A DNA stretch of 64,000 bases from Lachnospiraceae bacterium (GCA_022781985.1 JALESH010000030.1:3474-67473); one strand, 5' to 3'; shown: positions 14,655-64,000, counted from the stretch's first letter. The notes: a model not told the origin generated them from the sequence alone. Program-made: numbers and translations.

Positions 14655-14673
14655 AAGGAGCAGGGAAATAGAG

Positions 14674-46073: not shown

Positions 46074-46096
46074 AAAATGAAGGGAGGATATACAAA

Positions 46097-47227: not shown

Positions 47228-47243
47228 GCAGGGCCGGGAGGGT

Positions 47244-47894
47244 ATGAGCATGATATACGGAAAATATATAAAGAGGCTGCTGGATTTTATCCTGTCCCTT
47301 CTGGGTATTATCGTCCTCAGCCCGTTGCTTCTGATCCTGGCTGTGCTGGTACGCTGCAGGCTGGGAAGTCCTATTCTGTTCCGGCAGGAGAGGCCGGGCA
47401 AGGATGAAAAGATCTTTACCCTCTGCAAATTCCGGACCATGACGGATCAGAAGGATGACCGGGGCAGGCTCCTGCCGGACAGCCAGAGGCTCACCGGATT
47501 CGGCAGGCTGCTCAGGGCCTCCAGCCTGGATGAGCTGCCGGAGCTATTCAATATCCTCAGAGGGGACATGAGCATCATCGGGCCCAGGCCCCTGCTGGTC
47601 TCCTACCTGCCTTATTATACCCGGGAGGAGAGGAAGCGCCATACAGTGCGTCCCGGACTTACCGGACTGGCACAGGTCAGCGGCAGGAATTTTATAGACT
47701 GGGACAGGCGGCTGGAAAAGGATGTAGAGTATGTGGACCGGCTCTCCTTCAGGATGGATCTGAAGGTGCTGTGGCTCACGGTGAAAACGGTGCTGGGCCG
47801 CAGCAGTGAGGTGGCAGAGGATACCCAGGCAGTGGAAGGAAATTTTGCGCAGATCAGACAGAAGCGGCTGGATGAGACGGGAAGGCTGAAATAG
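47244..47894 (+). CDS. small monotopic phosphoglycosyl transferase (PglC/EpsL/WecP-core type, initiating enzyme)
   Basis: KR..DFILSLLG.IVLSP.....L.VR...GSPILF.Q.RPG.....F...KFRTM...D......RLT.FG..LR..SLDELPEL.NIL.GDMS.IGPRP. The ATG at 47244 follows GGGAGGG. Confidence 0.85.
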   Translation: MSMIYGKYIKRLLDFILSLLGIIVLSPLLLILAVLVRCRLGSPILFRQERPGKDEKIFTLCKFRTMTDQKDDRGRLLPDSQRLTGFGRLLRASSLDELPELFNILRGDMSIIGPRPLLVSYLPYYTREERKRHTVRPGLTGLAQVSGRNFIDWDRRLEKDVEYVDRLSFRMDLKVLWLTVKTVLGRSSEVAEDTQAVEGNFAQIRQKRLDETGRLK

Positions 47895-47939
47895 GAGAAG
47901 GCCGGGATTTGCGCGGGCAGAAGGAGCGTGGTGATAGCG

Positions 47940-48923: not shown

Positions 48924-50012
48924 ATGAGCAGGATTTTAATTTTGTCCAATTCCTCCGGCGGCCTGTATGATTTCAGGAACGAGCTGCTGGTGGAGCTGTT
49001 AAAAGAGCATCATGTCATCGTCAGCATACCGGATGATGTAAAAAAGAAGGAGCTGGAGGAGGAGGGCTGCCGGATCATCCCCACCCCCATCAACAGGAGA
49101 GGAGTGGATCCCAGGGAGGATATGAGGCTGCTCCTGTCCTATCGCAGGCTGCTCCGGGAGGCAGAGCCGCATCTGGTGCTGACCTATACCATAAAGCCCA
49201 ATGTATACGGCGGGCTGGCCTGCAGGCTGGCCCGCATCCCCTACCTGTCCACCATTACCGGACTGGGAGGCGGCTTCGACAGGAAAGGGCTGTTTCTGAG
49301 GCTGATCATCTCCCTGTATCGGACAGGCTTAAAGGGGGCGGCCTGTGTCTTTTTCCAGAACAGGGAGAACCTGGGCATTTTTGAAGGCTGGAGCATCCGG
49401 GGGAAAAAATCCCGTCTGGTCAGCGGCTCCGGGGTCAATCTGGAGCGGCATGTCTGTGAGGCATATCCGGCGGAAGGAAAGACCACCCTGCTTTTTGTGG
49501 GTAGGGTGATGAAGGAAAGGGGCATCCTGGAGTTTCTGGAGGCTGCGGTACGTCTCCACAGGGAGGATGTGGAGTTTGCCATACTGGGCTACTGCGACGA
49601 GGATTACCAGGCTATGCTGGATGAGTATGAGGAGAAGGGCGTGATCAGGCAGTGGGGGTTTCACACAGAGGTACACCCCTATCTGAGCAGGGCTTCCGCT
49701 GTGGTGGTGGCATCCTTCCACGAGGGCATGTCCAATGCCCTGATCGAGGCTGCAGCCACCGGCCGGCCGGTGATCGCATCCCGTATCAGCGGCTGTAAGG
49801 AGGCTTTTGAGGAGGGGATTACCGGCTTTGGCTTTACGCCGGGAGATGCAGACGGGCTGATAGAGGCCATTGAGAAATTCCTGAGCCTTTCCTGGGAGCA
49901 GCAGGCCCTCATGGGCAGGGCGGCCCGAGCCAAGATGGAGAGAGAGTTTGACAGGAATACAGTGACCCAGGCATATATACAGGAGATCCGGGAAGTTCTG
50001 TTTGGCAAATAG
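48924..50012 (+). CDS. glycosyltransferase family 4 (GT-B)
   Basis: The N-terminal ILILSNSSGGLYDFR.EL is typical of capsule-type GT4. The C-terminal HEGMSNALIEAAATGRPVIASRISGCKE.....TG signature is present. Confidence 0.8.
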   Translation: MSRILILSNSSGGLYDFRNELLVELLKEHHVIVSIPDDVKKKELEEEGCRIIPTPINRRGVDPREDMRLLLSYRRLLREAEPHLVLTYTIKPNVYGGLACRLARIPYLSTITGLGGGFDRKGLFLRLIISLYRTGLKGAACVFFQNRENLGIFEGWSIRGKKSRLVSGSGVNLERHVCEAYPAEGKTTLLFVGRVMKERGILEFLEAAVRLHREDVEFAILGYCDEDYQAMLDEYEEKGVIRQWGFHTEVHPYLSRASAVVVASFHEGMSNALIEAAATGRPVIASRISGCKEAFEEGITGFGFTPGDADGLIEAIEKFLSLSWEQQALMGRAARAKMEREFDRNTVTQAYIQEIREVLFGK

Positions 50013-50040
50013 GATCCCGGACTTTGGAAGGAGAATGGTT

Positions 50041-51360
50041 ATGAATTTGGATTTGTTTGAAAAGCTGGTCAGTGGGGAGGAGAAGCTTTCCCTAGTAGGA
50101 CTGGGATATGTGGGGATGCCCATCGCAGTAGCCTTTGCAAAAAAAATCAAGGTGATCGGCTTTGACTTAAATGAAAAGAAGGTGGAGCTGTATCGCTCCG
50201 GGGTGGATCCTACCAATGAGGTGGGGGATGAGGTGATCCGAAATACATCCGTGGACTTTACCGCCGATGCCTCCAGATTAAAGGAGGCAAAATTCCATAT
50301 CGTGGCAGTGCCTACACCGGTGAATGAGGATCATACGCCGGATCTTTCCCCTCTGGAGGGCGCCAGCCGTCTGCTGGGACAGAACCTGACCAGGGGTTCT
50401 GTGGTGGTATATGAGTCCACTGTATATCCGGGGGTGACGGAGGATATCTGCGTGCCTATCCTGGAGCGGGAGTCGGGCCTGAGGTGCGGAGTGGACTTCC
50501 GTGTGGGCTATTCTCCCGAGAGGATCAATCCGGGGGATAGGGTGCACCGTCTGGAAACCATCGTGAAGATCGTATCAGGGATGGATGAGGAGACTCTGGA
50601 GACAGTGGCCAGGGTCTATGAGCTGGTAGTGGAGGCCGGCGTATACCGCGCGGAGTCCATCCGGGTGGCAGAGGCCGCAAAGGTGATCGAGAACAGCCAG
50701 AGAGATATCAATATCGCCTTTATGAATGAGCTGTCCATTATCTTCCATAAGATGGGGATCGATACCAAGGAGGTACTGGCAGCAGCCGGCACCAAGTGGA
50801 ACTTTTTGAATTTTGCCCCCGGACTGGTGGGCGGACACTGCATCGGTGTGGATCCCTACTATCTCACCTACAAGGCGGAACAGCTGGGTTATCACTCCCA
50901 GATCATTCTGTCCGGACGCCGGATCAATGACGATATGGGAAAATATGTGGCAGAGAGCCTGGTAAAGAACCTGATCAGGACCGGGGCCGCTGTAAGCGGG
51001 GCCAGGGTGGCCATCCTGGGCTTTACCTTCAAGGAAAACTGCCCGGACACAAGGAACACCAAGGTCATTGATATCTACCGGGAGCTGGGAGAATACGGCA
51101 TCACCCCCATGGTGGTGGATCCTGAGGCAGATGCGGAGGAGGCAGGGCAGCTGTACGGCATCACCTTCCAGAAGCTGGAGGATATCAGGGATATGGATGC
51201 GGTCATCATAGCCGTGGCTCACGCCAGCTTCCAGGAGCTGTCCCCGGAGAGGATTGCTTCCTTCTTCCATCCGGATCATAAGGTAAAGGTACTGATGGAT
51301 CTGAAGGGGCTGTTTGACAGAAAGGAATATCAGAAGGATTATTTATATTGGAGGCTGTGA
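50041..51360 (+). CDS. UDP-N-acetylhexosamine 6-dehydrogenase (TviB/WbpO/CapL-like nucleotide-sugar dehydrogenase)
   Basis: LVGLGYVGMP.A.AF NAD site, VPTPV, ESTVYPG.TE, GYSPERINPGD, AE.AKVIEN.QRD.NIA and GLVGGHCIGVDPYYL catalytic Cys. The start is at 50035 or 50041, after GGAAGGAGA. Confidence 0.85.
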   Translation: MNLDLFEKLVSGEEKLSLVGLGYVGMPIAVAFAKKIKVIGFDLNEKKVELYRSGVDPTNEVGDEVIRNTSVDFTADASRLKEAKFHIVAVPTPVNEDHTPDLSPLEGASRLLGQNLTRGSVVVYESTVYPGVTEDICVPILERESGLRCGVDFRVGYSPERINPGDRVHRLETIVKIVSGMDEETLETVARVYELVVEAGVYRAESIRVAEAAKVIENSQRDINIAFMNELSIIFHKMGIDTKEVLAAAGTKWNFLNFAPGLVGGHCIGVDPYYLTYKAEQLGYHSQIILSGRRINDDMGKYVAESLVKNLIRTGAAVSGARVAILGFTFKENCPDTRNTKVIDIYRELGEYGITPMVVDPEADAEEAGQLYGITFQKLEDIRDMDAVIIAVAHASFQELSPERIASFFHPDHKVKVLMDLKGLFDRKEYQKDYLYWRL

Positions 51361-52790
51361 TCAGAAAAAACCGGAAAGCTACAAAAAGGATAAAGGCAGT
51401 CAGGCCCTGGCTCCTGCCGGGACTGCTGCTGGCAGTGTTCTGGGGCATGTTTGCCGTCTATGGGCCGGGGATCTACAATGACTCGGACCAGTATATCAAG
51501 ATGCACATCCACAGGGAGCCTCTCTATCCCCTGTTTCTGGCCGCCCTGCGGGGCATATTCGGGGAGGGCTGGCTGACCGCCATGGGAATCCTCCAGAATG
51601 GACTTGCGGCAGTGAGCATATGGGTTTTTGCCCGATACATGGCCGGAAGGTTCAGATTGAACTGGCTGGAGGAGGGGATCCTGGCTCTGCTGGGGCTGAT
51701 GCCCCACATGATGACCATGTTTTTTTCCTCCCTCCATCTGTTCCTGACCAATTCGGTGATGAGCGAGGCTCTCTGCCTGCCTCTGTTTCTGCTGTTTATG
51801 ACGGCCTGCTTCGGGATGTGCCTGGAGGAGGAGAGGAAAAAGAGGAGAGAAATGACAGGCCTAGCCCTGGCGCTGGCCTTTCTGCTGTCCCTCACCCGCA
51901 GCCAGATGCTGCTGGCGGTGCTGCTGTGGACGGCAGTGCTGGGAGGCAGGATTCTGCTGGAAAAAAAAGAGAAGGGACAGGGGGCAGGGGCCAGGCTGCC
52001 TGCCCTGCTGGCGGCGCTCACGGCGGCCCTGCTGGTATTTGCCCTGCGAACCCTGTCGGTAAGAACCTATAATCTGGTTTTCAACGGCCGTTTTATCAAC
52101 AATACCTACGGAGCCGTAAATACCCTGACCAATATTCTCTATGCTGCAGACAGATTCCATGGAGAGAGGATCTCAGACCCGGAGGCCAGGGAGTTCTTTT
52201 ATCTTATGTATGACCTTACGGAGGAGAGGCAGGCCAATTATAAATATGCGGGGAAGGGATGGACCCGGAGGGCGGAGCATCTGGAGCAGTGGCATGACAC
52301 CATCAAATACGAGATGATCGAGGATGTTTTCTATCAGGCCTATGATAAGACGGTGACCACGGACTACATTGAGCAGAACCTGATGGCAGATGAAACAGCG
52401 GCAAGGATCATAGCAGGCATCCTTCCGGGCTGCTTTCTCCGGTGGCTGGGCAATTATCTGGCAGTGGCAGCCTATGGACTGATCCGAAGCATCGCAGTGG
52501 TGCATCCATTGCTCAACCAGGCGGCGGCCCTGATCTATCTTTCCGTGCCTCTGCTGGCCTGGCTGGTCCGCAGGCGGGGCGGAGAGAGAGGAATCATAGT
52601 GGTGATGGCCATAGCCCTGCTGGCTGTCCTGGCCAATGCAGCAGCAGTGTCTGTGACCATCATGTGTCTGTCCAGATATATGATCTATGGATTTACCACA
52701 TTCTACGCAGGGTATTTCCTGCTGCTGCGGGAAATAAGGAAGAGCTATTGGAGGAGAAGGGCTCCGTCTGAGAAAGGAGGGCGGTCATAG
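51348..52790 (+). CDS. polytopic membrane protein, GT-C-like / polymerase candidate
   Basis: 480 aa. An N-D-S-D motif (51477..51488) follows the first TM helix. It has about 9 TM helices and a roughly 110-aa soluble loop. The start codon is uncertain (TTG 51348 or GTG 51357, neither with good SD spacing). Confidence 0.5.
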   Translation: MEAVIRKNRKATKRIKAVRPWLLPGLLLAVFWGMFAVYGPGIYNDSDQYIKMHIHREPLYPLFLAALRGIFGEGWLTAMGILQNGLAAVSIWVFARYMAGRFRLNWLEEGILALLGLMPHMMTMFFSSLHLFLTNSVMSEALCLPLFLLFMTACFGMCLEEERKKRREMTGLALALAFLLSLTRSQMLLAVLLWTAVLGGRILLEKKEKGQGAGARLPALLAALTAALLVFALRTLSVRTYNLVFNGRFINNTYGAVNTLTNILYAADRFHGERISDPEAREFFYLMYDLTEERQANYKYAGKGWTRRAEHLEQWHDTIKYEMIEDVFYQAYDKTVTTDYIEQNLMADETAARIIAGILPGCFLRWLGNYLAVAAYGLIRSIAVVHPLLNQAAALIYLSVPLLAWLVRRRGGERGIIVVMAIALLAVLANAAAVSVTIMCLSRYMIYGFTTFYAGYFLLLREIRKSYWRRRAPSEKGGRS

Positions 52791-52791
52791 G

Positions 52792-53547
52792 ATGATAGAT
52801 CCGGTCAGCCACAGAGGCTATTATGAGTATGGAAAAGTCAATGCCCAAATGGGGATGGCTACTGAAAACGGAGAGAAATTTGCCCTGGGCCAGGAGGGCA
52901 TGGAGAAGGACCACAGTCAGAAAAAAGGAAAAAAGAAGGTGGGGGAGGCCGATGGAGTGGTGGTGGAGCTCTCCGGCCAATCCGGCGGGAAGCAGGGGAG
53001 GGGAGCAGATACCGGAGCAGAGCCGGGGGCCGCTGGTTTGGGAACGGATTTCACCCGGATCGGCTCCGGCCTGGGGGCGCTGGGCTCCGGCCTCCGGCTA
53101 TGGGGCGCAAGCCTGGCAAGGCTGGTCACCAATTTCTTTTCCGGCCTGAGAAAGGCAGTTTCCGATTTCTGGAACTCAGACAGCCCTGCCGCCCCGGCCG
53201 GGGCGGAGGAGATCGTAGAGGCAGAGATCGTGTCCGCCGAGGACAGGATGGGGGAGGAGGGAGCAGCGGATGAGGACGGCGTGGTAGCTGATGTGACAGA
53301 GGAGACCGTCATCTCCGATGAGGCTCCGCTCCTGCTGCTGCCCGCCTTGCCGGTTTCCAAAGGGACTGAGGGGGATCCCCCGGAGCAGATGCCGGAGTCT
53401 CCCGGCGATACAGGCCAGGTCAGGTATGTAAAAGACTCGGATCTTCTCACCCACTATGACAGGAGAGGCAAGCTGGTACGGCTGAACGGCGCAGACAGGG
53501 ATCGGATCCTCCATGGGGAAAGGAGCGCCAGAAGATACAGGCGGTGA
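52792..53547 (+). CDS. hypothetical protein, Gly/Ala/Glu-rich and probably largely disordered
   Basis: Good RBS (GAAAGGAGGG). The ATG lies 1 nt after the upstream stop. The composition is low-complexity and no family is recognised. Coding status rests on position and RBS only. Confidence 0.4.
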   Translation: MIDPVSHRGYYEYGKVNAQMGMATENGEKFALGQEGMEKDHSQKKGKKKVGEADGVVVELSGQSGGKQGRGADTGAEPGAAGLGTDFTRIGSGLGALGSGLRLWGASLARLVTNFFSGLRKAVSDFWNSDSPAAPAGAEEIVEAEIVSAEDRMGEEGAADEDGVVADVTEETVISDEAPLLLLPALPVSKGTEGDPPEQMPESPGDTGQVRYVKDSDLLTHYDRRGKLVRLNGADRDRILHGERSARRYRR

Positions 53548-53562
53548 GGGGCTTCTGCCTGA

Positions 53563-53637
53563 TTTTGGAAGTCTGTTTTGAAAGTCAAAAAAAGTTGAAA
53601 ATGGTTGTTTTTTATGATATCATTGTTGAAAATGGTT
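53563..53637 (+). repeat. two pairs of short direct repeats sharing a TTG[GA]AA core, in a promoter region
   Basis: TTTTGGAAGTC (53563..53573) and TTTTGAAAGTC (53576..53586) differ at one position. GTTGAAAATGGTT at 53594..53606 recurs exactly at 53625..53637, 31 bp apart. Confidence 0.85.
53595..53623 (+). promoter_or_regulatory. sigma-A-type promoter (TTGAAA-17-TGaTATCAT)
   Basis: -35 at 53595..53600 (inside the first 13-bp repeat), a 17-nt spacer, TG at 53615..53616 and -10 at 53618..53623. It lies 46 nt upstream of the STAS gene. Confidence 0.5.
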
Positions 53638-53668
53638 TTGTCAGCCTAAAAAGGAGGAAGCAATAGAT

Positions 53669-53965
53669 ATGACTATTGATAAGATTTTAAAAGGAAAGGA
53701 ACTCATACTGAATCTGGCAGGGCGACTGGATGCCACCACCGCTCCTGCGCTGGAAAGTGAGCTGAAGGCCTACATAGATGAGCTGGAGATGCTGACCATT
53801 GATTTCAAGGGTCTGGAGTATGTTTCATCTGCAGGACTGCGTGTGCTGCTCTTTGCCCAGAAGGTGATGAATAAGCAGGGCAAGATGGTGATCCGCAATG
53901 TAAATGAAACCATAAACGAGATTTTTGAGGTGACAGGCTTTATCGACATACTCACCATCGAATAA
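53669..53965 (+). CDS. STAS-domain anti-sigma-factor antagonist (SpoIIAA/RsbV-like)
   Basis: 98 aa. L.L.GRLD..TAP.LE.EL and DFKGLEYVSSAGLRVLL carry the conserved Ser pair (53825..53830). Strong AAGGAGGAAG RBS. Confidence 0.88.
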   Translation: MTIDKILKGKELILNLAGRLDATTAPALESELKAYIDELEMLTIDFKGLEYVSSAGLRVLLFAQKVMNKQGKMVIRNVNETINEIFEVTGFIDILTIE

Positions 53966-54014
53966 GGGATGAGTATTTTGCCAGACATACTAAGCTAATG
54001 GAGGAAGTCCCCAG

Positions 54015-57000
54015 ATGGACACAAGGAAAACGAATAGTATGAGGAAATTGAGTCAGTCCCAGACTGCTGTGATACAAAGTGAGCTGGCTTTTGCCGGCAA
54101 AGCGCAGAATGTGATCTCTGTCAGGCTGCGTCTCTGGGGGCTGGAGGCATCTGCGATAAAGGCTGCGGCAGAGCAGGTTTTTGCATCGGCGGACATTTTT
54201 ACGGCAGAGCTGATCCGGGAAAGGGAGGCCTTTTATTTCCATGTGGGCAGCAGGCAGGCAGCGGAGTGCAGTGTCCTGCCGGCCATGGAAGAGGAAGAGG
54301 CAAAAGCTTATATGGAGGAGGGGGACTGCCGGCCCCTGGGCTTTCCGGAGGAGCTCTGCAGGGCAGTGGTCATCCCCATAGAGGAAGGGGGCGCGGCGCT
54401 TTATGTCCGTTTCCATCATGTCATCATGGATGGATACGGGATGAGCCTGTTTGCCCAGAGGGTATTGGATGTCCTGTCAGGGAAAGAGGCAGAAAGATCG
54501 GTATTTTTTAAGGAAGAGAGCGGGGAGGCCCATGCAGACAGGGAGAGTGCTGAGGGCAAGGGCATCCGCACAGAGGACAGGGACTTTTGGGCAGGCTTTT
54601 TCCAGGATGCGGAATTCGAGCCTGCTATTTTTGCAGAGGTTCCCAGGAGTCTGAACCGGAGGGTCTTTGAGTACAGCCTGGACCGGACTGTCATGGCAGG
54701 CCTGGAGAGGACGGCGGCAGCCTGCGGGGTCAGCATACCCTATGTGCTGGCGGGAGCCTATGCTGTTTACCTGGCGGAGGCTACAGATAAGAAGGATGCA
54801 GTCTTCCTGATGCCCAGGCTGAACCGTCTGCCGGAGGAGAGGGACACCCTGGGCTGCTTTACCCTGCTGGTGCCTGTCCGTGTACATATTGAACAGGGAG
54901 ACAGCTTTGCCCGGATCTGCCGCAGGGTGCAGGAGGCTGCCCAGGAGGCATCGGCCCGGAAGCAGACGGGCTTCGGAGAGATCCTGAATATTCTTCGGGA
55001 TGAGAATGTGGCGGCGGATTCCCTGTCAGAGTATGTTTTTAATTTTTACCGTTTTCAAATCCATACGGATCTGACCTATCAATTAGATATTAGTGTGGCC
55101 GGAGCCATGCACAATCATCTCACATGGAGTATTTTCAGAAAGGAAGATAGCCTTTCCTTCCGGCTGGATATGAGGGACGGTGTCTATGATGAGGAAAGGG
55201 CGGGATTTTTTATAGACGGCATCCTGCAGATTCTGGAGAGGGCAGACCGGGAGACGGAGGTAGGCAGCCTGTCTGTGACAGGAAAAAAGGAAGAGGAAAA
55301 GCTCCTGGCTGTGAGAGGCAGGGAGATTGAAATAGACAGAACAGAGACCATTCCCTCCCTGTTCAGGAAGGCGGCAGCCCAATATAAGGATCGCCCGGCA
55401 CTGTATGCGGGAAAGGACAGCCTCACCTTCGGGGAGCTGGACAGGGTGTCAGACAGGATCGCTGCTGCCCTGATGGCAGAGGGCGTGGAGAGCGGCAGCA
55501 GGGTGGCTTTCATGCTGCCTAGGGACATCCGGCTGATCCCCACCATGCTGGGGATATTGAAGACGGGAGCTATCTTTATCCCGGTGGATCCGGGCTATCC
55601 CAGGGACAGGGTGCGTTATATCCTGGAGGACAGCGACGCGGCTGTTCTGATCTCATCAGGGAGCGTGGAGGAGGCTTCCGGGCATAGGTATCTGGAGGTG
55701 GATGACCTGCTGGGATTTCCCGGGACAGACAGCAGCTTCCCCCGGATCCTTCAGGACCAGCCTGCCTATATGATCTATACCTCGGGCACCACAGGACGGC
55801 CCAAAGGGGTGATCCTGTCCCATCGGGGCATCATCAACATCGTCCATCCTGAAAACAATCCCTTCAACAGAGATATCGTCAGGAACTGCAGGGGAATTAC
55901 AGCCATCGGCTCCATCTGCTTCGATATTTCTCTTTTTGAGATATTTGTGCCCCTGCTGAACGGGCTGTTTGTGGAGCTGGGCAATGAAAAATCCATGCTG
56001 GATGCAGGAGAGCTGGCAAAGCATATCCTGGCCCATAAGGCTGATATTCTGCACTGCACTCCCTCCAGGATCGTGTCCTATCTGGGGAACAGCGACTTTG
56101 TGGGTGCGCTGCAGACGGTAAAGGCTGTGCTTTCTGCAGGGGAGGTGCTTCCCCGGAGCCTGGTGGATGAGCTGAAGAATGACTACGGCATCCGTATTTA
56201 TAACGGATACGGACCTACAGAGACCACCATAGGAGCCACCATTACAGAGGACGGAGATGAGAAAACCATCGGCAGGCCCATCGCCAATATGGGGGTTCTC
56301 CTGCTGAACCGGAACAGAAAGATAGTGCCCTATGGGGCGGCCGGGGAAATCTGCATCTATGGACTGGGGGTTGGCCTGGGCTACCGGAACCGCCCGGAGG
56401 AAACCGCAGAGAAGTTTACAGAGTACCAGGGCCGGCTTATTTACCGTACCGGTGATATCGGCCACTTTGCAGAGGACGGCAGCCTGATCTACCATGGCAG
56501 AAACGACAGGCAGATCAAGCTGCGGGGGCTGAGGATCGAGCTCTCGGAGATCGAGAAGGTGATCGGCTCCTTTAAGGGGATTTCCCAGGTGCACTGTATG
56601 ATCCGTACCATCGACAGGATGGAGCATCTGGCCGCGTTCTATACGGCGGAGACTGGGAAAAAGATAGAGCAGGAGAAGCTGCTGGAGCACATGAGAAGGC
56701 AGCTTACCTCCTATATGGTGCCGGATATCTTGAAGGAGCTGGAATCCATGCCCCAGACGCCCGGCGGCAAGACCGACCTGAAGGCCTTGAAGCAGATACC
56801 CATAGAGTACAGCCGCCAGTACAGGGCGCCGAAGAACAGGCTGGAAAAGCAGATCTGCCTGGCATTTTCCTCTGTGCTGGATAAGGAAAAGGTGGGGGCA
56901 GACGATAATTTCTTTGAAATGGGAGGGGATTCCCTGTCCGTCCCTGCGCTGCTCATGGAGATAGAGGACAGATTGGAGACAGAGGGACAGGAGCTGCTGG

Positions 57001-58253
57001 AGTTCGGTGATATTTTCAAGTATCCCACCCCTGCCCTGATCGCGGAGAAGATCGCCGGAAAGGTGAGGGAGGAGCCCCAGTACAGGATCGATGGGCTGGA
57101 TTACAGCGGTATCGATGAGTACCTCTCCGTGCCGGAGGGCAGGGAGGCAGTGAAAAGGAACCTGGGCAATATCCTGCTCACAGGCGTGACGGGCTATCTG
57201 GGCATCCATATCCTCATCGACCTGCTGGGCAGGCCGGAAAGCTTTGGGAAGGTGTTCTGTCTGGCCAGGGGCAACGCCAAGCTGTCCGCATCAAGACGGG
57301 TCAGAGGCACCCTGTTCTATTATGCAGAGGAGGATTTTACGGAGAGCTACGGCAGTAAGTGGGAGGTGGTGGAAGGGGATATCACAGATCCCAGGATCTT
57401 CAGGGAGGAATTTAATGAAAAGATCGACACCATCATCAATTCCGCAGCCAATGTGGCCCATTTTGCATACGGAGACGCCCTGGAGCAGGTAAATACCAGA
57501 GGGGTGGAAAATCTGATCGAATATGCGGTAGCCCAGGGGGCTGAGCTGTGCCAGGTGTCCACCATCAGCGTGGGCGGTGTATACCGGGCGGGAGAGGAGC
57601 ATGGGAGCCTGACGGAACAGAATCTGTACATCGGCCAGGAGATCCACAATCAGTATATTTATTCCAAGTATCTGGCGGAATATGCCATGCTTCGGGCAGG
57701 TGTGGACCGGGGGCTTTCCATCAAGCTCATGCGGGTGGGGAACCTGCAGGGCAGAAGCCGGGACGGGGAGTTCCAGATGAATATGAAGACCAATGCCTTT
57801 ACCCGCAGGCTGGCAGCCTATATCAGGATGGGAGCTATCCCCAGGTCGGTTTATGATTCCAGCGTGAATTTTTCTCCGGTGGATGAAACGGCGCATATGA
57901 TCGTATCCCTTGCCATGCTGGAGGGGGTACATACGGCTTTTCATGTGTACCCGCCGGAGGAGGCTGCGTTTAACAATCTGGTGGCAGCCCTTGAAAAGAT
58001 CGGACACAGGATCAGGCTGGTTTCGGATGAGGAGTTCGGCGCCATGCTGAGAGCTATGAAAAAATCCCGGGAAGGGGCCGATTCTGTGGAGGGGCTGCTG
58101 ACAGATATCAATCCCGGAGAGTACTGGGATATCCCCATTCTCCAGAGCTGGACCAACCATATGCTGGAGCTGCTGGGTGAGTGCTGGCAGCCCCTCACGG
58201 AAGAGTATCTGAACCGCTATCTGCTGGCCCTGGATGGGATGGATATGTTTTAA
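54015..58253 (+). CDS. single-module nonribosomal peptide synthetase, domain order C-A-T-R (terminal thioester reductase)
   Basis: C domain: HHVIMDG at 54414..54434. A domain: YTSGTTGRPKG at 55776..55808, plus NGYGPTETT, GEICIYG.GVGLGY, YRTGD and PGGKTD. T domain: FFEMGGDSLS with GGDSLS at 56922..56939. R domain: TGVTGYLG at 57180..57203 and Y-I-Y-S-K. Confidence 0.9.
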   Translation: MDTRKTNSMRKLSQSQTAVIQSELAFAGKAQNVISVRLRLWGLEASAIKAAAEQVFASADIFTAELIREREAFYFHVGSRQAAECSVLPAMEEEEAKAYMEEGDCRPLGFPEELCRAVVIPIEEGGAALYVRFHHVIMDGYGMSLFAQRVLDVLSGKEAERSVFFKEESGEAHADRESAEGKGIRTEDRDFWAGFFQDAEFEPAIFAEVPRSLNRRVFEYSLDRTVMAGLERTAAACGVSIPYVLAGAYAVYLAEATDKKDAVFLMPRLNRLPEERDTLGCFTLLVPVRVHIEQGDSFARICRRVQEAAQEASARKQTGFGEILNILRDENVAADSLSEYVFNFYRFQIHTDLTYQLDISVAGAMHNHLTWSIFRKEDSLSFRLDMRDGVYDEERAGFFIDGILQILERADRETEVGSLSVTGKKEEEKLLAVRGREIEIDRTETIPSLFRKAAAQYKDRPALYAGKDSLTFGELDRVSDRIAAALMAEGVESGSRVAFMLPRDIRLIPTMLGILKTGAIFIPVDPGYPRDRVRYILEDSDAAVLISSGSVEEASGHRYLEVDDLLGFPGTDSSFPRILQDQPAYMIYTSGTTGRPKGVILSHRGIINIVHPENNPFNRDIVRNCRGITAIGSICFDISLFEIFVPLLNGLFVELGNEKSMLDAGELAKHILAHKADILHCTPSRIVSYLGNSDFVGALQTVKAVLSAGEVLPRSLVDELKNDYGIRIYNGYGPTETTIGATITEDGDEKTIGRPIANMGVLLLNRNRKIVPYGAAGEICIYGLGVGLGYRNRPEETAEKFTEYQGRLIYRTGDIGHFAEDGSLIYHGRNDRQIKLRGLRIELSEIEKVIGSFKGISQVHCMIRTIDRMEHLAAFYTAETGKKIEQEKLLEHMRRQLTSYMVPDILKELESMPQTPGGKTDLKALKQIPIEYSRQYRAPKNRLEKQICLAFSSVLDKEKVGADDNFFEMGGDSLSVPALLMEIEDRLETEGQELLEFGDIFKYPTPALIAEKIAGKVREEPQYRIDGLDYSGIDEYLSVPEGREAVKRNLGNILLTGVTGYLGIHILIDLLGRPESFGKVFCLARGNAKLSASRRVRGTLFYYAEEDFTESYGSKWEVVEGDITDPRIFREEFNEKIDTIINSAANVAHFAYGDALEQVNTRGVENLIEYAVAQGAELCQVSTISVGGVYRAGEEHGSLTEQNLYIGQEIHNQYIYSKYLAEYAMLRAGVDRGLSIKLMRVGNLQGRSRDGEFQMNMKTNAFTRRLAAYIRMGAIPRSVYDSSVNFSPVDETAHMIVSLAMLEGVHTAFHVYPPEEAAFNNLVAALEKIGHRIRLVSDEEFGAMLRAMKKSREGADSVEGLLTDINPGEYWDIPILQSWTNHMLELLGECWQPLTEEYLNRYLLALDGMDMF

Positions 58254-58282
58254 AATACATAAGAAAGGATTAAATAAATTAT

Positions 58283-59722
58283 ATGATTATAGTTGCATTA
58301 TGGGGCTTTGCAGTTTTTCTGGCATCAGTCTTTGCAGTTCTGCTCAGCGCCGCCACCTTGGAGTCAAAGCATAAGCTGAGAACCAGGGTGATGGTCTGGC
58401 TGGCGGCAGGTCTGGTGGGCTACGGCATTTCCTTCATTTCTTACATGGTCAATCTTTATAATGACACAGTAGGGATACTCGGATTGTCTGTTGTTGTATG
58501 TATCATTGTGGATTGGCTGTATGAGGGAACTCGCTCCGCTAAGCTTTTCGTGGCTCTTGTTTCCTGTTTGATTGCCAACGTGACCACCTTTATGTTTTGC
58601 GGAACCACAGATACTCTGCTGGCGGGCAGGCTGGGGCTGATGAAGGAAAGTCCCTATGAGGTATCCAACATCCTGTTTTTCATTGGCATAAAGATCGTAG
58701 TATATACGTTCTTTTATATATTATATATTAAATTTTTACGAGGAAAAATCTGTGAAATGATCCAGTCACTGTCCGGGAAGATGTCCCATTATGTGGCGGC
58801 TCCCCTGATTTCCGTAATAGGCTTTTATATTATTAACCTGTTCACTAATCAGAATGGGATTTTTCCCAATCATTACTGGTTCTTTCCGCTCTACCTGACC
58901 ATATGTGTAATCTTCGTGGTAGAATTTGTACTGCTTATCAATTCTGTTATGCAGACGGCTACAGCCATGAAGAATGAGGCAGAGCTGAATGTGGCCACCA
59001 ATATTCAGCAGTCTATGCTGCCCTGTATCTTTCCTGCATTTCCGGAAAGGAAGGAATTTGACATTTATGCCTCCATGGCTCCTGCCAAGGAGGTGGGCGG
59101 TGACTTCTATGATTTCTTTATGGTGGATGAAAGGCATCTGGCCATCGTAATGGCTGATGTGTCGGGAAAGGGCGTCCCCGCCGCCTTGTTTATGGTCATC
59201 GGCAAGACACTGCTCAAGGATCATACACAGCCCGGAAGGGATCTGGGAGAGGTATTTGGCGAGGTCAACAATCTGCTGTGCGAAGCCAACAGCGAAGGGC
59301 TTTTTATTACCGTATTTGAGGGTGTGCTGGATCTGGTGACAGGGGAGTTTGTCTTTGTCAATGCGGGCCATGAGCCGCCGTACATCTGCAAGAAGGGCGG
59401 AGAGTTCGAACTGCATCAGATCCGCGCAGGCTTTGTATTGGCCGGCATGGAGGATACTCGCTACCGCGCAGGCTGCATTACCTTGGAGGAAGGGGATAAG
59501 CTGTTCCAGTATACCGACGGTGTGACGGAGGCTACCAGTGCCCAGAATGAGCTGTACGGCAAAGACAGGCTGCAGAAGGTGCTGGCTGCCAACAGCAGCA
59601 AGGCGCCTGCAGAGATACTGCCGGCTGTAAAGGCCGATATTGACCTGTTTGTGGGCTCAGCCCCTCAGTTTGATGACATCACAATGCTTTGTCTGGAGTA
59701 TAAGGTCAGGATGCAGACGTAA
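58283..59722 (+). CDS. SpoIIE/PP2C-family serine phosphatase with polytopic N-terminal membrane (sensor) domain (RsbU/SpoIIE-like)
   Basis: The N-terminal roughly 230 aa form about 7 hydrophobic helices. They are followed by A.NIQQSMLP, EVGGDFYDFF, MADVSGKGVPAALFM, YTDGVTEA and QFDDIT PPM motifs. Confidence 0.88.
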   Translation: MIIVALWGFAVFLASVFAVLLSAATLESKHKLRTRVMVWLAAGLVGYGISFISYMVNLYNDTVGILGLSVVVCIIVDWLYEGTRSAKLFVALVSCLIANVTTFMFCGTTDTLLAGRLGLMKESPYEVSNILFFIGIKIVVYTFFYILYIKFLRGKICEMIQSLSGKMSHYVAAPLISVIGFYIINLFTNQNGIFPNHYWFFPLYLTICVIFVVEFVLLINSVMQTATAMKNEAELNVATNIQQSMLPCIFPAFPERKEFDIYASMAPAKEVGGDFYDFFMVDERHLAIVMADVSGKGVPAALFMVIGKTLLKDHTQPGRDLGEVFGEVNNLLCEANSEGLFITVFEGVLDLVTGEFVFVNAGHEPPYICKKGGEFELHQIRAGFVLAGMEDTRYRAGCITLEEGDKLFQYTDGVTEATSAQNELYGKDRLQKVLAANSSKAPAEILPAVKADIDLFVGSAPQFDDITMLCLEYKVRMQT

Positions 59723-59737
59723 TAAGGAGGATGGAAG

Positions 59738-60145
59738 ATGAATGAATTGACGATTGATGCAACCGTTAACAATATTGAAGCTGTAACATCCTTTGTAGAA
59801 GAGAAGCTGGCGCCGTTCCATCTTCCGGTAAAGAGCCAGAGGCAGATCAATGTGGCTATAGACGAGCTGTTCGGGAATATCGCGTTATATGCCTACAATC
59901 CTGATAAAGGTATGGCAGTGGTCCGGGTGGAGTTCGGTGACGATCCACCGTCGGTGACCATTACCTTTATCGACAGGGGGACGCCCTATGATCCGCTGGC
60001 AAGGCCGGATCCTGATGTGACGCTTTCTGCAGAGCAGAGGAAGATCGGAGGGCTGGGCATCTACATGGTGAAAAAAAGCATGGATGATGTCTCATACGAA
60101 TACCGGGATGGGCAGAACATCCTGCGCATCACAAAAAACATATAG
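59738..60145 (+). CDS. anti-sigma-factor-type serine kinase (SpoIIAB/RsbW-like HATPase_c)
   Basis: 135 aa. N-box-like DELFGNIA.YAY, D.G.PYDP, and a G-box GGLGIYMVKKSMD. It starts 15 nt after the phosphatase gene. Confidence 0.85.
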   Translation: MNELTIDATVNNIEAVTSFVEEKLAPFHLPVKSQRQINVAIDELFGNIALYAYNPDKGMAVVRVEFGDDPPSVTITFIDRGTPYDPLARPDPDVTLSAEQRKIGGLGIYMVKKSMDDVSYEYRDGQNILRITKNI

Positions 60146-60160
60146 ACCAAATCAGGAAAA

Positions 60161-60204
60161 TAAGGCTGGAATAGCTGGCGAACAGAGCTACTCCGGCCTT
60201 TTGT
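60161..60204 (+). terminator. rho-independent terminator
   Basis: A 15-bp stem pairs AAGGCTGGAATAGCT (60161..60175) with AGCTACTCCGGCCTT (60185..60199), with one mismatch and one G-U pair. It is followed by TTTTG. Confidence 0.6.
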
Positions 60205-60241
60205 AGAACAAAAGAATGGATGGGTGCAGGGGAAAATATCT

Positions 60242-60814
60242 ATGCAGATGATAATCCGGAAGGGGTTAATAGAGCTTATATATAAGGATTTGCAAGAAAA
60301 GAAGATTATTTACCTGAGCGCTCCCTGCGGCTGGGGAAAGACTGTGCTTTTGCAGCAGATTGCAGATTTTCTCAGGAGCAGGAGAGAGGAGTGTGTGTTC
60401 CTGCATACACAGGAGGAAGTGGGGCAGGGCCTGGTTTCGGCTACCCATCCAAAGGGTGAGACAGAGAAGGAGGCCCAAATCTTTCTGGTAGATAATCTGG
60501 AAGAGTGGCTGATGTCAGGCAGGATGGAAGCGCTGATGAACCATATTCATATCGGGAGAAAGGAAAATAAGTTTATATTGGGAGGCAGGATCCCGCTGCC
60601 GGTCCAGCTGGTTCCCTATAAGATCTGTTCCCAGATCTCAATCTACGGCAGGGATAAATTGAAATATTCCCGGGAGGAGTTGGATCAGATGTGCGATGGA
60701 CTGAGCCGGGGGAACAGCAGGGAGCAGCTCCGGAGCATGTACGAGGTATGCGGGGGAATGCCCCTGCTGCTGGCTGTAGCCGGGGATCTGCTGGAGGAAG
60801 AAGGCTATGCTTGA
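60242..60814 (+). CDS. P-loop NTPase module of a LAL/MalT-type regulator (separate ORF)
   Basis: Walker A APCGWGKT (60320..60343) and Walker-B-like IFLVDNLEEW. The ORF ends in TGA overlapping the ATG of the next ORF (ATGCTTGA). ATG at 60242 follows AGGGGA; the track starts at GTG 60224. Confidence 0.6.
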   Translation: MQMIIRKGLIELIYKDLQEKKIIYLSAPCGWGKTVLLQQIADFLRSRREECVFLHTQEEVGQGLVSATHPKGETEKEAQIFLVDNLEEWLMSGRMEALMNHIHIGRKENKFILGGRIPLPVQLVPYKICSQISIYGRDKLKYSREELDQMCDGLSRGNSREQLRSMYEVCGGMPLLLAVAGDLLEEEGYA

Positions 60815-62651
60815 TTACAGGATACTTGGAAAATGCTATGAGGAATGCTTCCGGTACTATGAGGCTGTCTGCTTTAAGGCTTATCCCGGTGAGTACCAGA
60901 CCATCCTGCTGAAAACAGCTTTTTTCCCTGGTATAAATCAGGAGCTGCTGATGCAGGTGTTTGACTGCAGCGAGACGGACAGCAAGAGGATATTAGGCGA
61001 TCTGTGTGAGGTGTATGGGGCACTCATCCCTCAGTCAGAGGGGGAGTATGTCCTGGAAGAATTTCTGAGGATGTTTCTGCAGAAGCGCCAGACCGTCTAT
61101 CTGAATGTGGGGGAGATGGACAGGGTATATAAAAAAGCATACGAATACTATGTATCAGGGGCCAAGTGGAAGGAAGCGGTGAGATATGCCCACTTAAGCG
61201 GTGATATACAGGGAGTGGTGAGATGCCTGCATGAGGCATTGACAGAAAATGAGCTGGAAGGCTGCTGGCAGGATCTGCAGCCTTACCTGGAGAGTGTGCC
61301 GGAGCCCTATGTCACCGGTGATCCTGTCCTCCTCTATGCTTATGCCATGCTGGAAGCACTGTATGGCAATAAAAAGGAGTCTGAGCGTTATGCGGGGATT
61401 TTGGAACGGCGCAGGAGGGAAACACCGGAGGATTCTGAGGAATTTGCTTTACTGCAGTCTGCCTGTGAGTTCCTGCAGGCACATCTGCCCTACCGGGAGC
61501 CGGAGGAGCTGTTCCTTTGGCTGGAGCATACGGATGGCTGCCGGAAATATCCATGGCATAGGATCAGCCTGAGCAGCGGGCAGCCCAGCTTTCTCCATGG
61601 AGACAGAGACTTCAGCATATATATGGGCGGCAGGGAGGCTCTGGAAAAAGCGGCAGAAGGGCTGAAGGCCCTTATGCAGGATGACTGTGACGGCATCCAG
61701 GAGGTGATCCTGGGGGAGGTCGCCTATGAAAAGGGTGACCTGGATGAGGCGGTGACGCTGCTGGCAAAGGGGATCAGCAGCGCCTCAGGCAAGAATGAGG
61801 AGACAGTATATGTAGCAAGCATGCTGCTGGCTAAGATCATGTACGTAAGGAACCAGCCGGAGCAGGCCCGGAATGTGGTAAGGGGAATGGAGCGCAGGCT
61901 GGCAGGAAGTGACAGCCTGTATGCCAGAGCCAATCTGGAGGCCTTTCAGATCTATATCCGTATGCTGCAGGGGGAAAGCCGGGCGGCAGCGGATTGGGCC
62001 CGGTACAGTGCCCCTCAGGAGCAGGATGTGTTCATTACCCTGGACAGCTACTGCTATATGGTAAAGATCTATGCTTATATCATGATGGACCATACAGAAA
62101 CTGCCCTGCTGATCCTGTACCGGATCCTGTCATATGCCAGGGAATATCACAGGAAGTACGACGAGCTGCACATGCGTCTGCTTGAAATCATCATCCTGTA
62201 TGGAAAAAAGGGAAGGAAATGGGTGACCATGCTGGGGGAGCTACTGGAGGAAACCCAGCAGTATGGCATGGTGCGTCTGTATGCGGACCGGGGGGCTCTG
62301 CTGTACCCTGTATTAAAAAGCTATGAGGAGTACAGAAAAACGGAAGATACAGGCAGAACCATAGACCCCGGCTATTATAAAAAGATAAGGGAACAGACCG
62401 GGAATTTAGCCCTGGTTTACCCCGGCTTCAGTACGCAGAAAAAGGAATATGAGGAGCTGAACCGGCACGAGCAGGATGTACTCAGGCTGCTCTGTGGAGG
62501 GCTGAAAAATGCAGAGATTGCAGACCGTCTGTTTGTGACGGAAAACACGGTGAAATATCATCTTAAAAAGATATATCAGAAGCTGCAGGTGGGCAGCCGC
62601 AATGAAGCGGTCGCTAGGGCCATGGAACTGGAAATGAAAGGGCAGGAGTGA
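60807..62651 (+). CDS. LuxR-family transcriptional regulator, helical/TPR-like sensor region + C-terminal HTH (MalT/LAL-type, lacking its own NTPase)
   Basis: The C-terminal L..HEQDVLRLLCGGLKNAEIADRLFVTENTVKYHLKKIYQKLQV.SRNEAV.RA is a classic LuxR/FixJ HTH. The upstream roughly 540 aa are alpha-helical repeat-like. Confidence 0.8.
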   Translation: MLDYRILGKCYEECFRYYEAVCFKAYPGEYQTILLKTAFFPGINQELLMQVFDCSETDSKRILGDLCEVYGALIPQSEGEYVLEEFLRMFLQKRQTVYLNVGEMDRVYKKAYEYYVSGAKWKEAVRYAHLSGDIQGVVRCLHEALTENELEGCWQDLQPYLESVPEPYVTGDPVLLYAYAMLEALYGNKKESERYAGILERRRRETPEDSEEFALLQSACEFLQAHLPYREPEELFLWLEHTDGCRKYPWHRISLSSGQPSFLHGDRDFSIYMGGREALEKAAEGLKALMQDDCDGIQEVILGEVAYEKGDLDEAVTLLAKGISSASGKNEETVYVASMLLAKIMYVRNQPEQARNVVRGMERRLAGSDSLYARANLEAFQIYIRMLQGESRAAADWARYSAPQEQDVFITLDSYCYMVKIYAYIMMDHTETALLILYRILSYAREYHRKYDELHMRLLEIIILYGKKGRKWVTMLGELLEETQQYGMVRLYADRGALLYPVLKSYEEYRKTEDTGRTIDPGYYKKIREQTGNLALVYPGFSTQKKEYEELNRHEQDVLRLLCGGLKNAEIADRLFVTENTVKYHLKKIYQKLQVGSRNEAVARAMELEMKGQE

Positions 62652-62662
62652 CGGAGGAAGAT

Positions 62663-63532
62663 ATGGCGGAGTATGACAGCCGGGATAGGAAACAGAAGAC
62701 AAGGGAGGAGAGCAGAAAAAGGCTGAAGGAGACAGTCTGGCGTCTGACGGCGCCCGTACATGTGACCTTAAATTCTTATAAGGAGCACGAGAGGATCGAG
62801 GGCTACTATGAATTTAAGGACTACAGGCATGTTTTTCAGTGCGACAGGCTGCTGAAGCTGGAAACTGTGTACGGAAGGGTGCAGATGGGCTACAATCCCA
62901 ATCGCAGGAGAAGCTTTCTCTTTGCCAATATGAAGACCAATCTCTACGATACGGTCAGCTTTGGCTATCAGAAGAGCATGAAGGAATATCAGCGGCGGCC
63001 GGAGCAGAAGCGGGGAGGCAAAAATATGGCCTATGTGTCAGGCCGGAAAAAAAATGCTGCAGTTCTGCTGGAGAAAACAGAGAGCAGGCCCTGGTCTGAA
63101 GGTGCGCTAAGACCCTATTTCCACAATGCCAATCTGGAGGTCATACTGAAGACGATGCCCTTTTTCCATGCGGAGGCGGAGCGGGAACAGCTGCAGCAGG
63201 TCCGGGAAAGGATGCGCCTGCTGCAGGAGCAGGTCCGGGATAATGCCCGGAAGGGGGAATATGAAAGAAACAGGGGTCTGCAGCAGAGGCTCCGTGAGCT
63301 GGGAGAGGAGTCGGAGCTTCTGCAGTCCATATTGCGCAGGAAGGATGCAGGAAGAAGGGGTTTTATCCGAAAAATCAACTATGCCTTTGATATAGAGAAG
63401 CACCAGATGTTCCAATATTACAGAGAGCAGAGGCTGAAGTCATCCCGGGAACAGATATCCGCCATCGATCAGCAGGCGGATGAGGAGGGTAATTCTTCGG
63501 AGAATAAGGAGCAGAGCGATCAGAATGAATAA
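62663..63532 (+). CDS. hypothetical protein (charged, coiled-coil-rich C-terminal half)
   Basis: ATG at 62663 follows GGAGG; the track's GTG at 62648 overlaps the upstream stop. No family recognised. The sequence is Lys/Arg/Glu-rich, with heptad-like runs (REQLQQVRERMRLLQEQVRD). Confidence 0.5.
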   Translation: MAEYDSRDRKQKTREESRKRLKETVWRLTAPVHVTLNSYKEHERIEGYYEFKDYRHVFQCDRLLKLETVYGRVQMGYNPNRRRSFLFANMKTNLYDTVSFGYQKSMKEYQRRPEQKRGGKNMAYVSGRKKNAAVLLEKTESRPWSEGALRPYFHNANLEVILKTMPFFHAEAEREQLQQVRERMRLLQEQVRDNARKGEYERNRGLQQRLRELGEESELLQSILRRKDAGRRGFIRKINYAFDIEKHQMFQYYREQRLKSSREQISAIDQQADEEGNSSENKEQSDQNE

Positions 63533-64000
63533 AGGGAAGTTTTTTGAGGAGGCATGCCGGATCCTTGAGCTGTCGGAGGAAGAAAAAAGACTGGCTGAGG
63601 AGCTTTTGGAGGGGCCGGCTGCCCTGGATAAGATAAAGAACAGGGGAGGGGGTAATCTGTCTCCTGTTTTTGCACATATGCAGGACCGGGTATGCCTGTA
63701 CCCTGTCTTTATGGCCTACGTCAACGGAGAGCTGCCTGCAGCAGAGAGCGGGGAGCTGCCTCCCGGGATGGAGCTGCTGTTTCCCCGGCAGGAAAAGCTC
63801 TATGGGGAGAGGGAGGTCGTGGAGGACCTACAGAGCCTGTTTGAAGACAGGAACCAGGACAGGCCTCTTTGCTGCGTGGTGCTGGAAAATGAGGAAGGGA
63901 GCTCCCGTTTCGCAGCAGAGCAGGCGGCCTGCCGGCTGGGCATGCCCCTGCTTCTATGGGATGGCGTGGAGACAGCGTGGCCGGAGCTTTTGCTGACTGC
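63525..64000 (+). CDS. hypothetical protein, 3'-truncated by window edge
   Basis: This ORF is not in the supplied track because it has no stop in the window. The ATG at 63525 overlaps the upstream gene by 8 nt. I translated 158 codons by hand (MNKGKFFEEACRILELSEEEKRLAEELLEGPAALDKIKNRGGG...AACRLGMPLLLWDGVETAWPELLLT) and found no stop. Its composition looks far more protein-like than the Cys/Arg/Trp-rich track ORF 63670..63996. Confidence 0.5.
   Translation, partial: MNKGKFFEEACRILELSEEEKRLAEELLEGPAALDKIKNRGGGNLSPVFAHMQDRVCLYPVFMAYVNGELPAAESGELPPGMELLFPRQEKLYGEREVVEDLQSLFEDRNQDRPLCCVVLENEEGSSRFAAEQAACRLGMPLLLWDGVETAWPELLLT

Follow-up and report, generated by a model that had tools for sequence, protein, structure and literature searches.

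Partner switches of the RsbV/W/U and SpoIIAA/AB/E kind are built from three protein families, a STAS protein, a serine kinase with a HATPase_c_2 domain and a phosphatase of the SpoIIE/PP2C family, together with a cognate sigma factor gene in or beside the module. In a second kind, represented by SiaABCD, HsbA-HsbD and BgrV-BgrR, the switch has no sigma factor and controls an enzyme that is encoded nearby (PMC8457831); in the SiaABCD type, the unphosphorylated switch protein binds and activates this enzyme (PMC8457831, PMC7647112). Here, we analysed a 64,000-nucleotide stretch of DNA from a Lachnospiraceae bacterium (GCA_022781985.1 JALESH010000030.1:3474-67473), which we call the window, where genes of the same three families enclose a gene for a nonribosomal peptide synthetase (NRPS).

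The locus differs from RsbV/W/U and SpoIIAA/AB/E in that a 4.2-kb NRPS gene stands between the STAS and phosphatase genes, and in that a sigma factor gene is missing. A profile search and Pfam scans of candidate-sized open reading frames (ORFs) found no sigma70-family ORF in the 64-kb window, in line with an earlier note on this DNA that saw no sigma gene on either side. The phosphatase is polytopic like SpoIIE, with a domain of seven transmembrane helices (7TM) that is unrelated to any named family, and the kinase lies far under the NCBIfam equivalog cut-offs of RsbW (33 bits, cut-off 145) and SpoIIAB (22 bits, cut-off 135). SiaABCD of Pseudomonas aeruginosa, like HsbR/HsbA-HsbD and BgrSTUWV-BgrR, co-encodes a membrane-anchored PP2C, a kinase, a small switch protein and an enzyme, and the window likewise encodes its switch genes with an enzyme and no sigma factor. 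The PP2C domain of SiaA is also among the best fold matches and the NCBIfam matches of the window phosphatase. However, the enzyme of SiaABCD is a diguanylate cyclase and not an NRPS, SiaC is a DUF1987 protein (of STAS-like fold) phosphorylated on Thr whereas the window carries a true STAS domain, and the window phosphatase reaches 40 bits with the SiaA model against a cut-off of 700. Judged by sequence, the module is a partner switch without an adjacent sigma gene, SiaABCD-like in its logic and not orthologous to SiaA/B/C.

We take the window NRPS to belong to the peptide-aldehyde/pyrazinone NRPS family of gut Clostridia. The products of reductase-terminated NRPSs from gut Firmicutes, on which this placement partly leans, have been summarised as dipeptide aldehydes (PMC12327764). 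The peptide-aldehyde NRPSs of gut Clostridia and AusA of Staphylococcus aureus are reductase-terminated like the window enzyme, which differs from the former as a single-module enzyme with a condensation (C) domain of putative starter type. A neighbourhood of switch and NRPS genes was described in 2010 for the archaeon Methanobrevibacter ruminantium M1: the NRPS gene mru0068 is flanked by genes for two serine phosphatases, an anti-sigma antagonist and a MatE pump, and mru0513-0516 combine a phosphopantetheinyl transferase (PPTase), a phosphatase, an antagonist and a kinase (PMC2812497). Leahy et al. 2010 offered a one-sentence guess, that these proteins sense the environment and regulate NRPS expression, with no comparative or mechanistic analysis and no mention of a 7TM phosphatase type (PMC2812497). 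The M. ruminantium enzymes are archaeal and have two and four modules, whereas the window NRPS is bacterial and has one. The claim of the earlier note that the arrangement matches no described system must hence be given up, since the adjacency has been reported (PMC2812497) and sigma-less switches that control enzymes are known (PMC8457831). In the full-text literature searched, to which Guo 2017 and Schneider & Balskus 2018 did not belong, Leahy 2010 was the only source for a link between switch and NRPS, and we found no mechanistic or conservation analysis of this link, of the 7TM sensor or of the MatE::HATPase fusion described below.

Results

The cassette consists of four genes on the + strand: a STAS gene (53669-53965, 98 amino acids (aa); Pfam STAS, E 7e-16), an NRPS gene with the domain order condensation-adenylation-thiolation-reductase (C-A-T-R; 54015-58253, 1412 aa), a 7TM-PP2C phosphatase gene (58283-59722, 479 aa; Pfam SpoIIE, E 4e-45) and a gene for an RsbW/SpoIIAB-type serine kinase (59738-60145, 135 aa; Pfam HATPase_c_2, E 2e-22). 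ORF and Pfam analyses agree with the earlier note on the strand, on all four gene types and on the gaps of 49, 29 and 15 nucleotides (nt) between the genes. A Shine-Dalgarno-like GGAGG or AAGGA lies 5' of each ORF.

Is this arrangement kept across genomes, or is it peculiar to one genome with a recent NRPS insertion? Homologs came from gut metagenomes and from metagenome-assembled genomes of Lachnospiraceae, Roseburia, Blautia and Acetatifactor, with identities to the window proteins of 49-66% for the NRPS and 60-81% for the phosphatase. Comparison by eye, in which the longest contigs were equally long, suggests that the NRPS and phosphatase homolog clusters (at least 25) stem from the same contigs. 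The cassette neighbourhoods were recovered from the NRPS side and from the 7TM-phosphatase side. The NRPS and all three switch genes were found together in 11 of 11 distinct loci of the close family (NRPS 46-66% identical), and the full gene set was again present in all four loci of a Butyricicoccaceae type (L011-L013 and L095, of Butyricicoccus/Agathobaculum type; NRPS 36-38%). The cross-genome conservation on which the earlier note had wanted its proposal checked is thus seen in 15/15 distinct loci, with an order that is sometimes permuted, and the alternative of an arrangement found in one genome only is refuted by these loci and their unrelated flanks. Depending on the lineage, the cassette is flanked by ABC/C39 transporters, a sugar transport operon, ribosomal genes, xanthine permeases or a methyl-accepting chemotaxis protein. 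The order is NRPS-PP2C-kinase-STAS in L001 and kinase-x-STAS-NRPS-PP2C in L004; STAS and kinase genes can each lie up- or downstream, and phosphatase and kinase are fused in two cassettes (L006 and P0203). The cassette genes of relatives overlap or are 9-24 nt apart, and NRPS and PP2C have diverged in step, their pairwise identities being correlated with r = 0.88. Because the set is kept despite unrelated flanks, permuted order and fusions, these comparisons support the STAS-NRPS-PP2C-kinase cassette as a conserved, portable functional unit.

Other genes and differences were seen around the cassettes of relatives. A protein of 154-167 aa with a cyclic nucleotide monophosphate (cNMP)-binding domain (L004 15404-15868, L009 14097-14600, L010 10666-11139) is encoded by the gene next to the kinase gene on its 3' side in L009 and L010, and in L004 a transporter gene separates the two. 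An AgrCA-like pair of GHKL kinase and LytTR regulator lies beside the cassette in L008 (5307-7500) and in seven other loci. L089 and L090 are near-identical contigs from different samples that differ downstream of the cassette, one having an ABC exporter with and the other without a C39 peptidase domain (L089 12022-13602, L090 11448-13634).

Does the link between switch and NRPS extend beyond this family? A genome scan seeded with core A-domain and reductase motifs yielded 79 loci and was swamped by generic NRPSs, and its 50 unrelated NRPS loci served as a negative control. The other 29 carry reductase-terminated NRPSs of gut or rumen anaerobes with one, two or three modules and span Clostridia, Bacilli, Bacteroidales and Spirochaetia. 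A STAS, PP2C or kinase gene was present in 21 of these 29 loci (all three in 16/29) and in 0/50 of the NRPS loci from actinomycetes, pseudomonads, cyanobacteria and others (Fisher p = 6e-13). Multimodular loci mostly encode phosphatase and kinase as one fused protein of about 700 aa, and the sensor of this phosphatase consists of an extracytoplasmic domain between transmembrane (TM) helices, TM-extracytoplasmic domain-TM, and not of a 7TM bundle. The gene after the NRPS there typically encodes a MATE exporter with a C-terminal RsbW-like domain. This MatE::HATPase_c_2 fusion occurs beside STAS/PP2C genes in 25 related loci, 13 of which are NRPS loci, and a Pfam scan of 23 members found MatE in 23 and HATPase_c_2 in 20. 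To our knowledge, this fusion has not been described. Examples lie in L009 (5795-7567), L019 (12313-14085 and 15211-17007) and L092 (3585-5321).

A metagenome scan seeded with the phosphatase gave 80 loci, most of which share only the catalytic domain (35-76% identity); a kinase gene was found in 36, a STAS gene in 22 and an NRPS gene in 2. Other genes between or beside STAS and PP2C-kinase encode MatE::HATPase, GH3 amide synthetases, methyl-, acetyl- and formyltransferases, MFS transporters with sensor domains and a cellulase-glycosyltransferase fusion. Because enzyme and exporter genes recur as bracketed or adjacent cargo, the switch clade is, by its gene content, associated with small-molecule or polymer synthesis or export, and the NRPS cassette is one version of it. 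In place of an NRPS, a GH3-family amide synthetase and MatE::HATPase stand within a STAS...PP2C-kinase bracket in L017 (15712-21116), L019 (14827-20234), L100 (511-8082) and L107 (2759-8182). The GH3 brackets sometimes add a methyltransferase, a PPTase or a glyoxalase, and in L017 and L019 a multi-module NRPS, with three modules in L019, immediately adjoins the bracket. MatE::HATPase is also bracketed together with a formyltransferase.

The switch proteins of the window carry the residues expected of a partner switch: a conserved phosphorylatable Ser at the start of helix 3 in the STAS protein, the ATP-binding boxes of HATPase_c_2 and the metal-binding PP2C aspartates. The VSSAGL motif, which the earlier note had called phospho-acceptor-type, spans STAS residues 52-57, and alignment puts its second Ser, the phospho-acceptor Ser54 in VSSAGLR, in register with the phospho-Ser of RsbV and SpoIIAA. 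Ser54, Gly56 and Arg58 are invariant in 32/32 homologs. The single-domain protein is of the anti-sigma-antagonist type and scores above the cut-off of NCBIfam TIGR00377. In the kinase, which matches RsbW 6m36 weakly, the N box (E43, N47), the G1 box (D79, G81) and the G2 box (G104, G105, G107) are invariant in 40/40 homologs. By these alignments, the kinase retains all ATP-binding boxes and the STAS protein its phospho-acceptor serine. The five PP2C aspartates (D274, D292, D412, D464 and D465) are invariant among the phosphatase homologs.

The synthetase follows the C-A-T-R order with a C domain at about 54120-55304 (Pfam Condensation), an A domain at about 55362-56771 (AMP-binding), a T domain at about 56853-57047 (PP-binding) and a thioester reductase (R) domain at about 57171-58109 (NAD_binding_4; TIGR01746 domain). 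HHxxxDG, the A-domain core motifs, GGDS, TGxTGxLG and YxxxK are all invariant in a 25-member alignment. With its C, A, T and reductase motifs unbroken, the enzyme is, on sequence grounds, a catalytically intact single module that is reductase-terminated. AusA is its best NCBIfam match. Among solved structures, the C domain comes nearest to CDA-C1 and RzmA-Cs, which are starter (lipo-initiation) domains, and the nearest solved T-R is the peptidyl carrier protein-reductase (PCP-R) didomain of M. ruminantium Mru_0351 (6vtj, E 2e-70), with AusA second. Since the C domain is nearest to starter domains and the T-R to aldehyde-releasing reductases, the predicted enzyme should release an N-acylated amino aldehyde (or alcohol). 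We mapped ten putative substrate-pocket positions by eye from the core motifs against a GrsA sequence; the pocket so obtained, D-I-F-H-L-A-G-I-G-K, is invariant in 25/25 aligned members except that F641 is Y in three, at an overall identity in the family of only 49-66%. This essentially invariant pocket argues that all members of the NRPS family probably make one common product. Two further observations concern the homologs. In L008, a free-standing A-T didomain protein is encoded directly after the kinase (14112-15983) and could serve as aminoacyl donor for the C domain, instead of an acyl start. Four long NRPS homologs (about 1510-1523 aa) were considered as fusions with STAS or kinase and rejected, having only low-complexity inserts in the C domain.

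The phosphatase combines an N-terminal 7TM domain (residues 1-225, 58283..58957; from hydropathy and AlphaFold2 (AF2)) with a PP2C/SpoIIE catalytic domain (59015..59722; Pfam SpoIIE, residues 283-473/479, E 4e-45). Hydropathy and model predict seven TM helices with very short loops in ~225 residues, which bears out the polytopic domain of ~230 aa seen in the earlier note. The AF2 model of the domain has a predicted local distance difference test (pLDDT) of 88.9 and a predicted template modelling score (pTM) of 0.84; in the model of the phosphatase (pLDDT 87), one long helix (residues 200-244) links TM7 to PP2C. The fold of the catalytic domain matches the PP2C domains of RssB, Rv1364c RsbU-RsbW and SiaA, and the full-length model matches PP2C domains only. 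The 7TM domain holds many invariant polar and aromatic residues. Pfam gave no significant family for it (best E 0.011) and Foldseek no fold relative in the PDB (best E 0.31, TM-score about 0.2). It is rare, with 33 clusters among 1.84 billion representative proteins, where its partners are PP2C, PP2C plus kinase, GGDEF (about 395 aa) or HisKA-HATPase-REC. The 7TM-GGDEF proteins are P0246, P0248, P0251, P0254 and P0258, and the 7TM-histidine kinase is P0260. Shuffling among output domains is a hallmark of an input domain. As the 7TM domain is shuffled among PP2C, GGDEF and histidine-kinase outputs, it is by this pattern the sensor or input module of a receptor-type phosphatase.

The signals around the cassette are of unequal weight. 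The earlier note had the operon bracketed by a promoter and a terminator, and both patterns are present. The sigma-70-like promoter candidate (53595..53623, + strand; TTGAAA-17 nt-TATCAT with extended TG, 10/12 matches) sits in the 121-nt gap 5' of the STAS gene, and this position is its sole support: promoter-like sites are not enriched in the region, with 5 observed against 7.6 expected from shuffled sequence. The terminator-like element 3' of the kinase gene (60162..60205, + strand) is a 14-bp hairpin (60162-60200, -21.5 kcal/mol, z = -3.4) followed by UUUUGU; folding identified it, and a rule-based terminator scan did not call a terminator there. Together with the short gaps between the genes, this one flanking hairpin argues for a self-contained operon of four genes.

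As the earlier note had it, Pfam places polysaccharide-synthesis genes upstream and a MalT-TPR/LuxR regulator downstream. Positions 1-53547 are nearly all one same-strand polysaccharide-biosynthesis locus (~53 kb) with many GT2/GT4 glycosyltransferases, two Polysacc_synt_2 proteins, a DegT aminotransferase, Bac_transf, a PylC-like ATP-grasp protein, a Wzy-like protein, DUF6020, GtrA, YdjC and a UDP-glucose dehydrogenase; large ORFs without a Pfam match include 36122-38041, 51348-52790 and 52792-53547. The split MalT/LAL-type regulator (60224..62651, + strand) comprises a 196-aa P-loop (STAND-like) ORF and a 614-aa ORF with MalT-TPR and LuxR-HTH that overlap by 8 nt (ATGCTTGA); this is one gene with a frameshift or else a regulator in two parts, and possibly the local regulator of transcription. 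As a part of the system, the downstream LuxR/STAND genes were rejected, their homologs adjoining the cassette in no other locus. Rfam matched nothing in 50000-64000, no match was found among PLSDB plasmids, and an exact-sequence lookup returned no record of the window NRPS. Across 44000-64000 the GC skew stays positive (about +0.07 to +0.25) and every gene is on the + strand, a pattern consistent with a position on the leading strand. Local GC content is lower in the phosphatase gene (0.46-0.48) than in the NRPS gene (~0.55).

Discussion

The linkage of switch genes with NRPSs is robust and is found widely among the NRPS clusters of gut and rumen, and what it does we infer. With no sigma gene beside it, the switch probably either governs the metabolite pathway or answers to it. 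For the proposal of the earlier note that the synthetase or its product is the input or the output of the switch, the evidence is mixed. We tentatively favour a sigma-less partner switch that would act post-translationally on the synthesis or export of the metabolite. A membrane signal would set the activity of the PP2C, and phosphatase and kinase together would set the phosphorylation state of Ser54 in the STAS protein. The STAS protein, the kinase or both may then bind a non-sigma target of the metabolite pathway; candidates are the synthetase, the donor or carrier of its acyl group and, among relatives, the MatE::HATPase exporter with its RsbW-like domain. Production or export could thus be gated post-translationally, in analogy to unphosphorylated SiaC, HsbA or BgrV switching on their enzymes, and transcription would be left to neighbouring regulators, LuxR/MalT here and an AgrCA-like LytTR pair in many relatives. 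The MatE::HATPase fusion gives the strongest hint that the contact between an RsbW-like domain and STAS is made on proteins of the pathway. STAS domains are known to regulate transporters (SulP/SLC26, MlaB-MlaF), and the STAS domain of YchM has reportedly been crystallised with acyl carrier protein (ACP). The YchM-ACP precedent would fit an enzyme with a starter C domain that needs an acyl-ACP donor.

Several observations weigh against a post-translational switch of this kind. The window has no MatE::HATPase gene, so that the exporter hint has no direct bearing there, and no STAS or kinase domain fused to an NRPS was found among the NRPS homologs. A link to NRPS for all phosphatase relatives was rejected, as 78/80 of the loci from the phosphatase-seeded scan had no NRPS within 7 kb. 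The PP2C-kinase fusion, which would tether the kinase to the membrane, may still be compatible with an anti-sigma role. Relatives of the module occur together with sigma genes. In L178 (907-3841) and L179 (1590-4524), a STAS-7TM-PP2C pair lies divergent from a kinase gene and a gene for an extracytoplasmic function (ECF)-like sigma factor, with no NRPS, and L090 has a related sigma gene 6 kb downstream of its cassette.

These arrangements speak for a classical anti-sigma module, in which the kinase sequesters an ECF-like sigma factor encoded in trans and the dephosphorylated STAS protein frees the sigma factor, which would then transcribe the NRPS operon, other genes or both. We regard this as somewhat unlikely. 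L178 and L179 establish that an ordinary sigma-linked form of the module exists, a sigma gene also lies directly upstream of the MatE::HATPase gene in L156, and regulation of NRPS expression is what Leahy et al. proposed (PMC2812497). However, our sigma profile search, for which RpoE, SigF and three sigmas from the loci themselves served as seeds, covered 180 sequences and found sigma70-family ORFs in only six of them, L090 being the one cassette locus; for 14 of the 15 distinct cassettes, the surrounding 8-10 kb hold no sigma gene. The ECF-like gene that is intact in L090 (16916-17401) is broken in L089 (16881-17400), and the 64 kb of the window hold no sigma gene. The window proteins share 56% identity with L178/L179 for STAS, 41% for full-length 7TM-PP2C and 28% for the kinase, the switch protein that has diverged most from its sigma-linked homolog. 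From these values, the NRPS cassette appears to be derived, having lost the sigma gene. In addition, the cassette keeps together as it moves among unrelated contexts, and it is found in four phyla. The site 5' of the STAS gene resembles a housekeeping extended -10 promoter, and ordinary regulators recur by the cassettes, with AgrCA-like LytTR pairs in eight or more loci and LuxR/MalT in the window. Archaea are not known to use bacterial sigma factors. Switch genes nevertheless accompany the NRPS in an archaeon (PMC2812497). As a side observation, four tandem ORFs of ~100 aa without a Pfam match and a radical SAM enzyme are encoded downstream in L178/L179.

Could the switch instead report on the product? 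In an autoreceptor circuit, the lipophilic NRPS product would enter the membrane and be sensed by the 7TM domain, and the switch would relay its presence to an outside target or as feedback on the pathway, much like the synthase-receptor pair of a quorum-sensing system. The 7TM domain, nearly loop-free and with invariant polar residues inside its helices, would fit an intramembrane ligand site, and the invariant A-domain pocket points to one conserved product, as is typical of signals. Where enough flank is available, the 7TM-PP2C subtype always adjoins a single-module NRPS, with the exception of the distant L178, and the phosphatase is more conserved than the NRPS (64-81% versus 49-66%). We nonetheless consider product sensing unlikely. 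It is weakened by the 7TM relatives with GGDEF or histidine-kinase outputs (31-40% identity), which adjoin no NRPS, and the sigma-linked homolog in L178/L179 has no NRPS either. The multimodular NRPS loci use the TM-extracytoplasmic domain-TM sensor, and because they carry this different sensor the common denominator is the switch and not the 7TM domain.

That an NRPS landed in a functionally unrelated partner-switching operon seems very improbable: a distant homolog has an NRPS-free STAS-PP2C arrangement and the PP2C catalytic domain has relatives in many further settings, but the link holds in two or more clostridial families, even where NRPS identity falls to 36% and genes are permuted or fused, recurs with unrelated NRPS architectures in four phyla and contrasts with other NRPS loci at p = 6e-13.

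The post-translational switch may also be combined with product sensing. In such a circuit, the phospho-STAS switch would directly gate the activity of the one-module NRPS or the release of its product, a conserved N-acyl amino aldehyde, and the 7TM phosphatase would be the receptor for this same aldehyde. We think this doubtful; if true, it would put synthase, receptor and switch into one portable operon of gut Clostridia, a small-molecule circuit of a kind not recognised before, and a like logic, with STAS docking on MATE-fused RsbW-like domains, would govern the whole family of poorly characterised NRPS clusters of gut and rumen.

Few biosynthetic loci are commoner in human-gut and rumen anaerobes than reductase-terminated NRPS clusters. 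The peptide-aldehyde products of such clusters reportedly inhibit host proteases, according to Guo et al. 2017, and are hard to obtain from native strains. For R. bromii, exhaustive attempts to isolate the product by culture failed (PMC12327764). A signalling module that travels with the gut and rumen NRPS clusters is a handle on when these clusters switch on. Two unnamed building blocks, the 7TM sensor domain and the MatE::HATPase_c_2 fusion, are worth curating. If a post-translational switch is indeed at work, nonribosomal peptide synthesis or export would join the short list of partner-switch outputs other than sigma factors.

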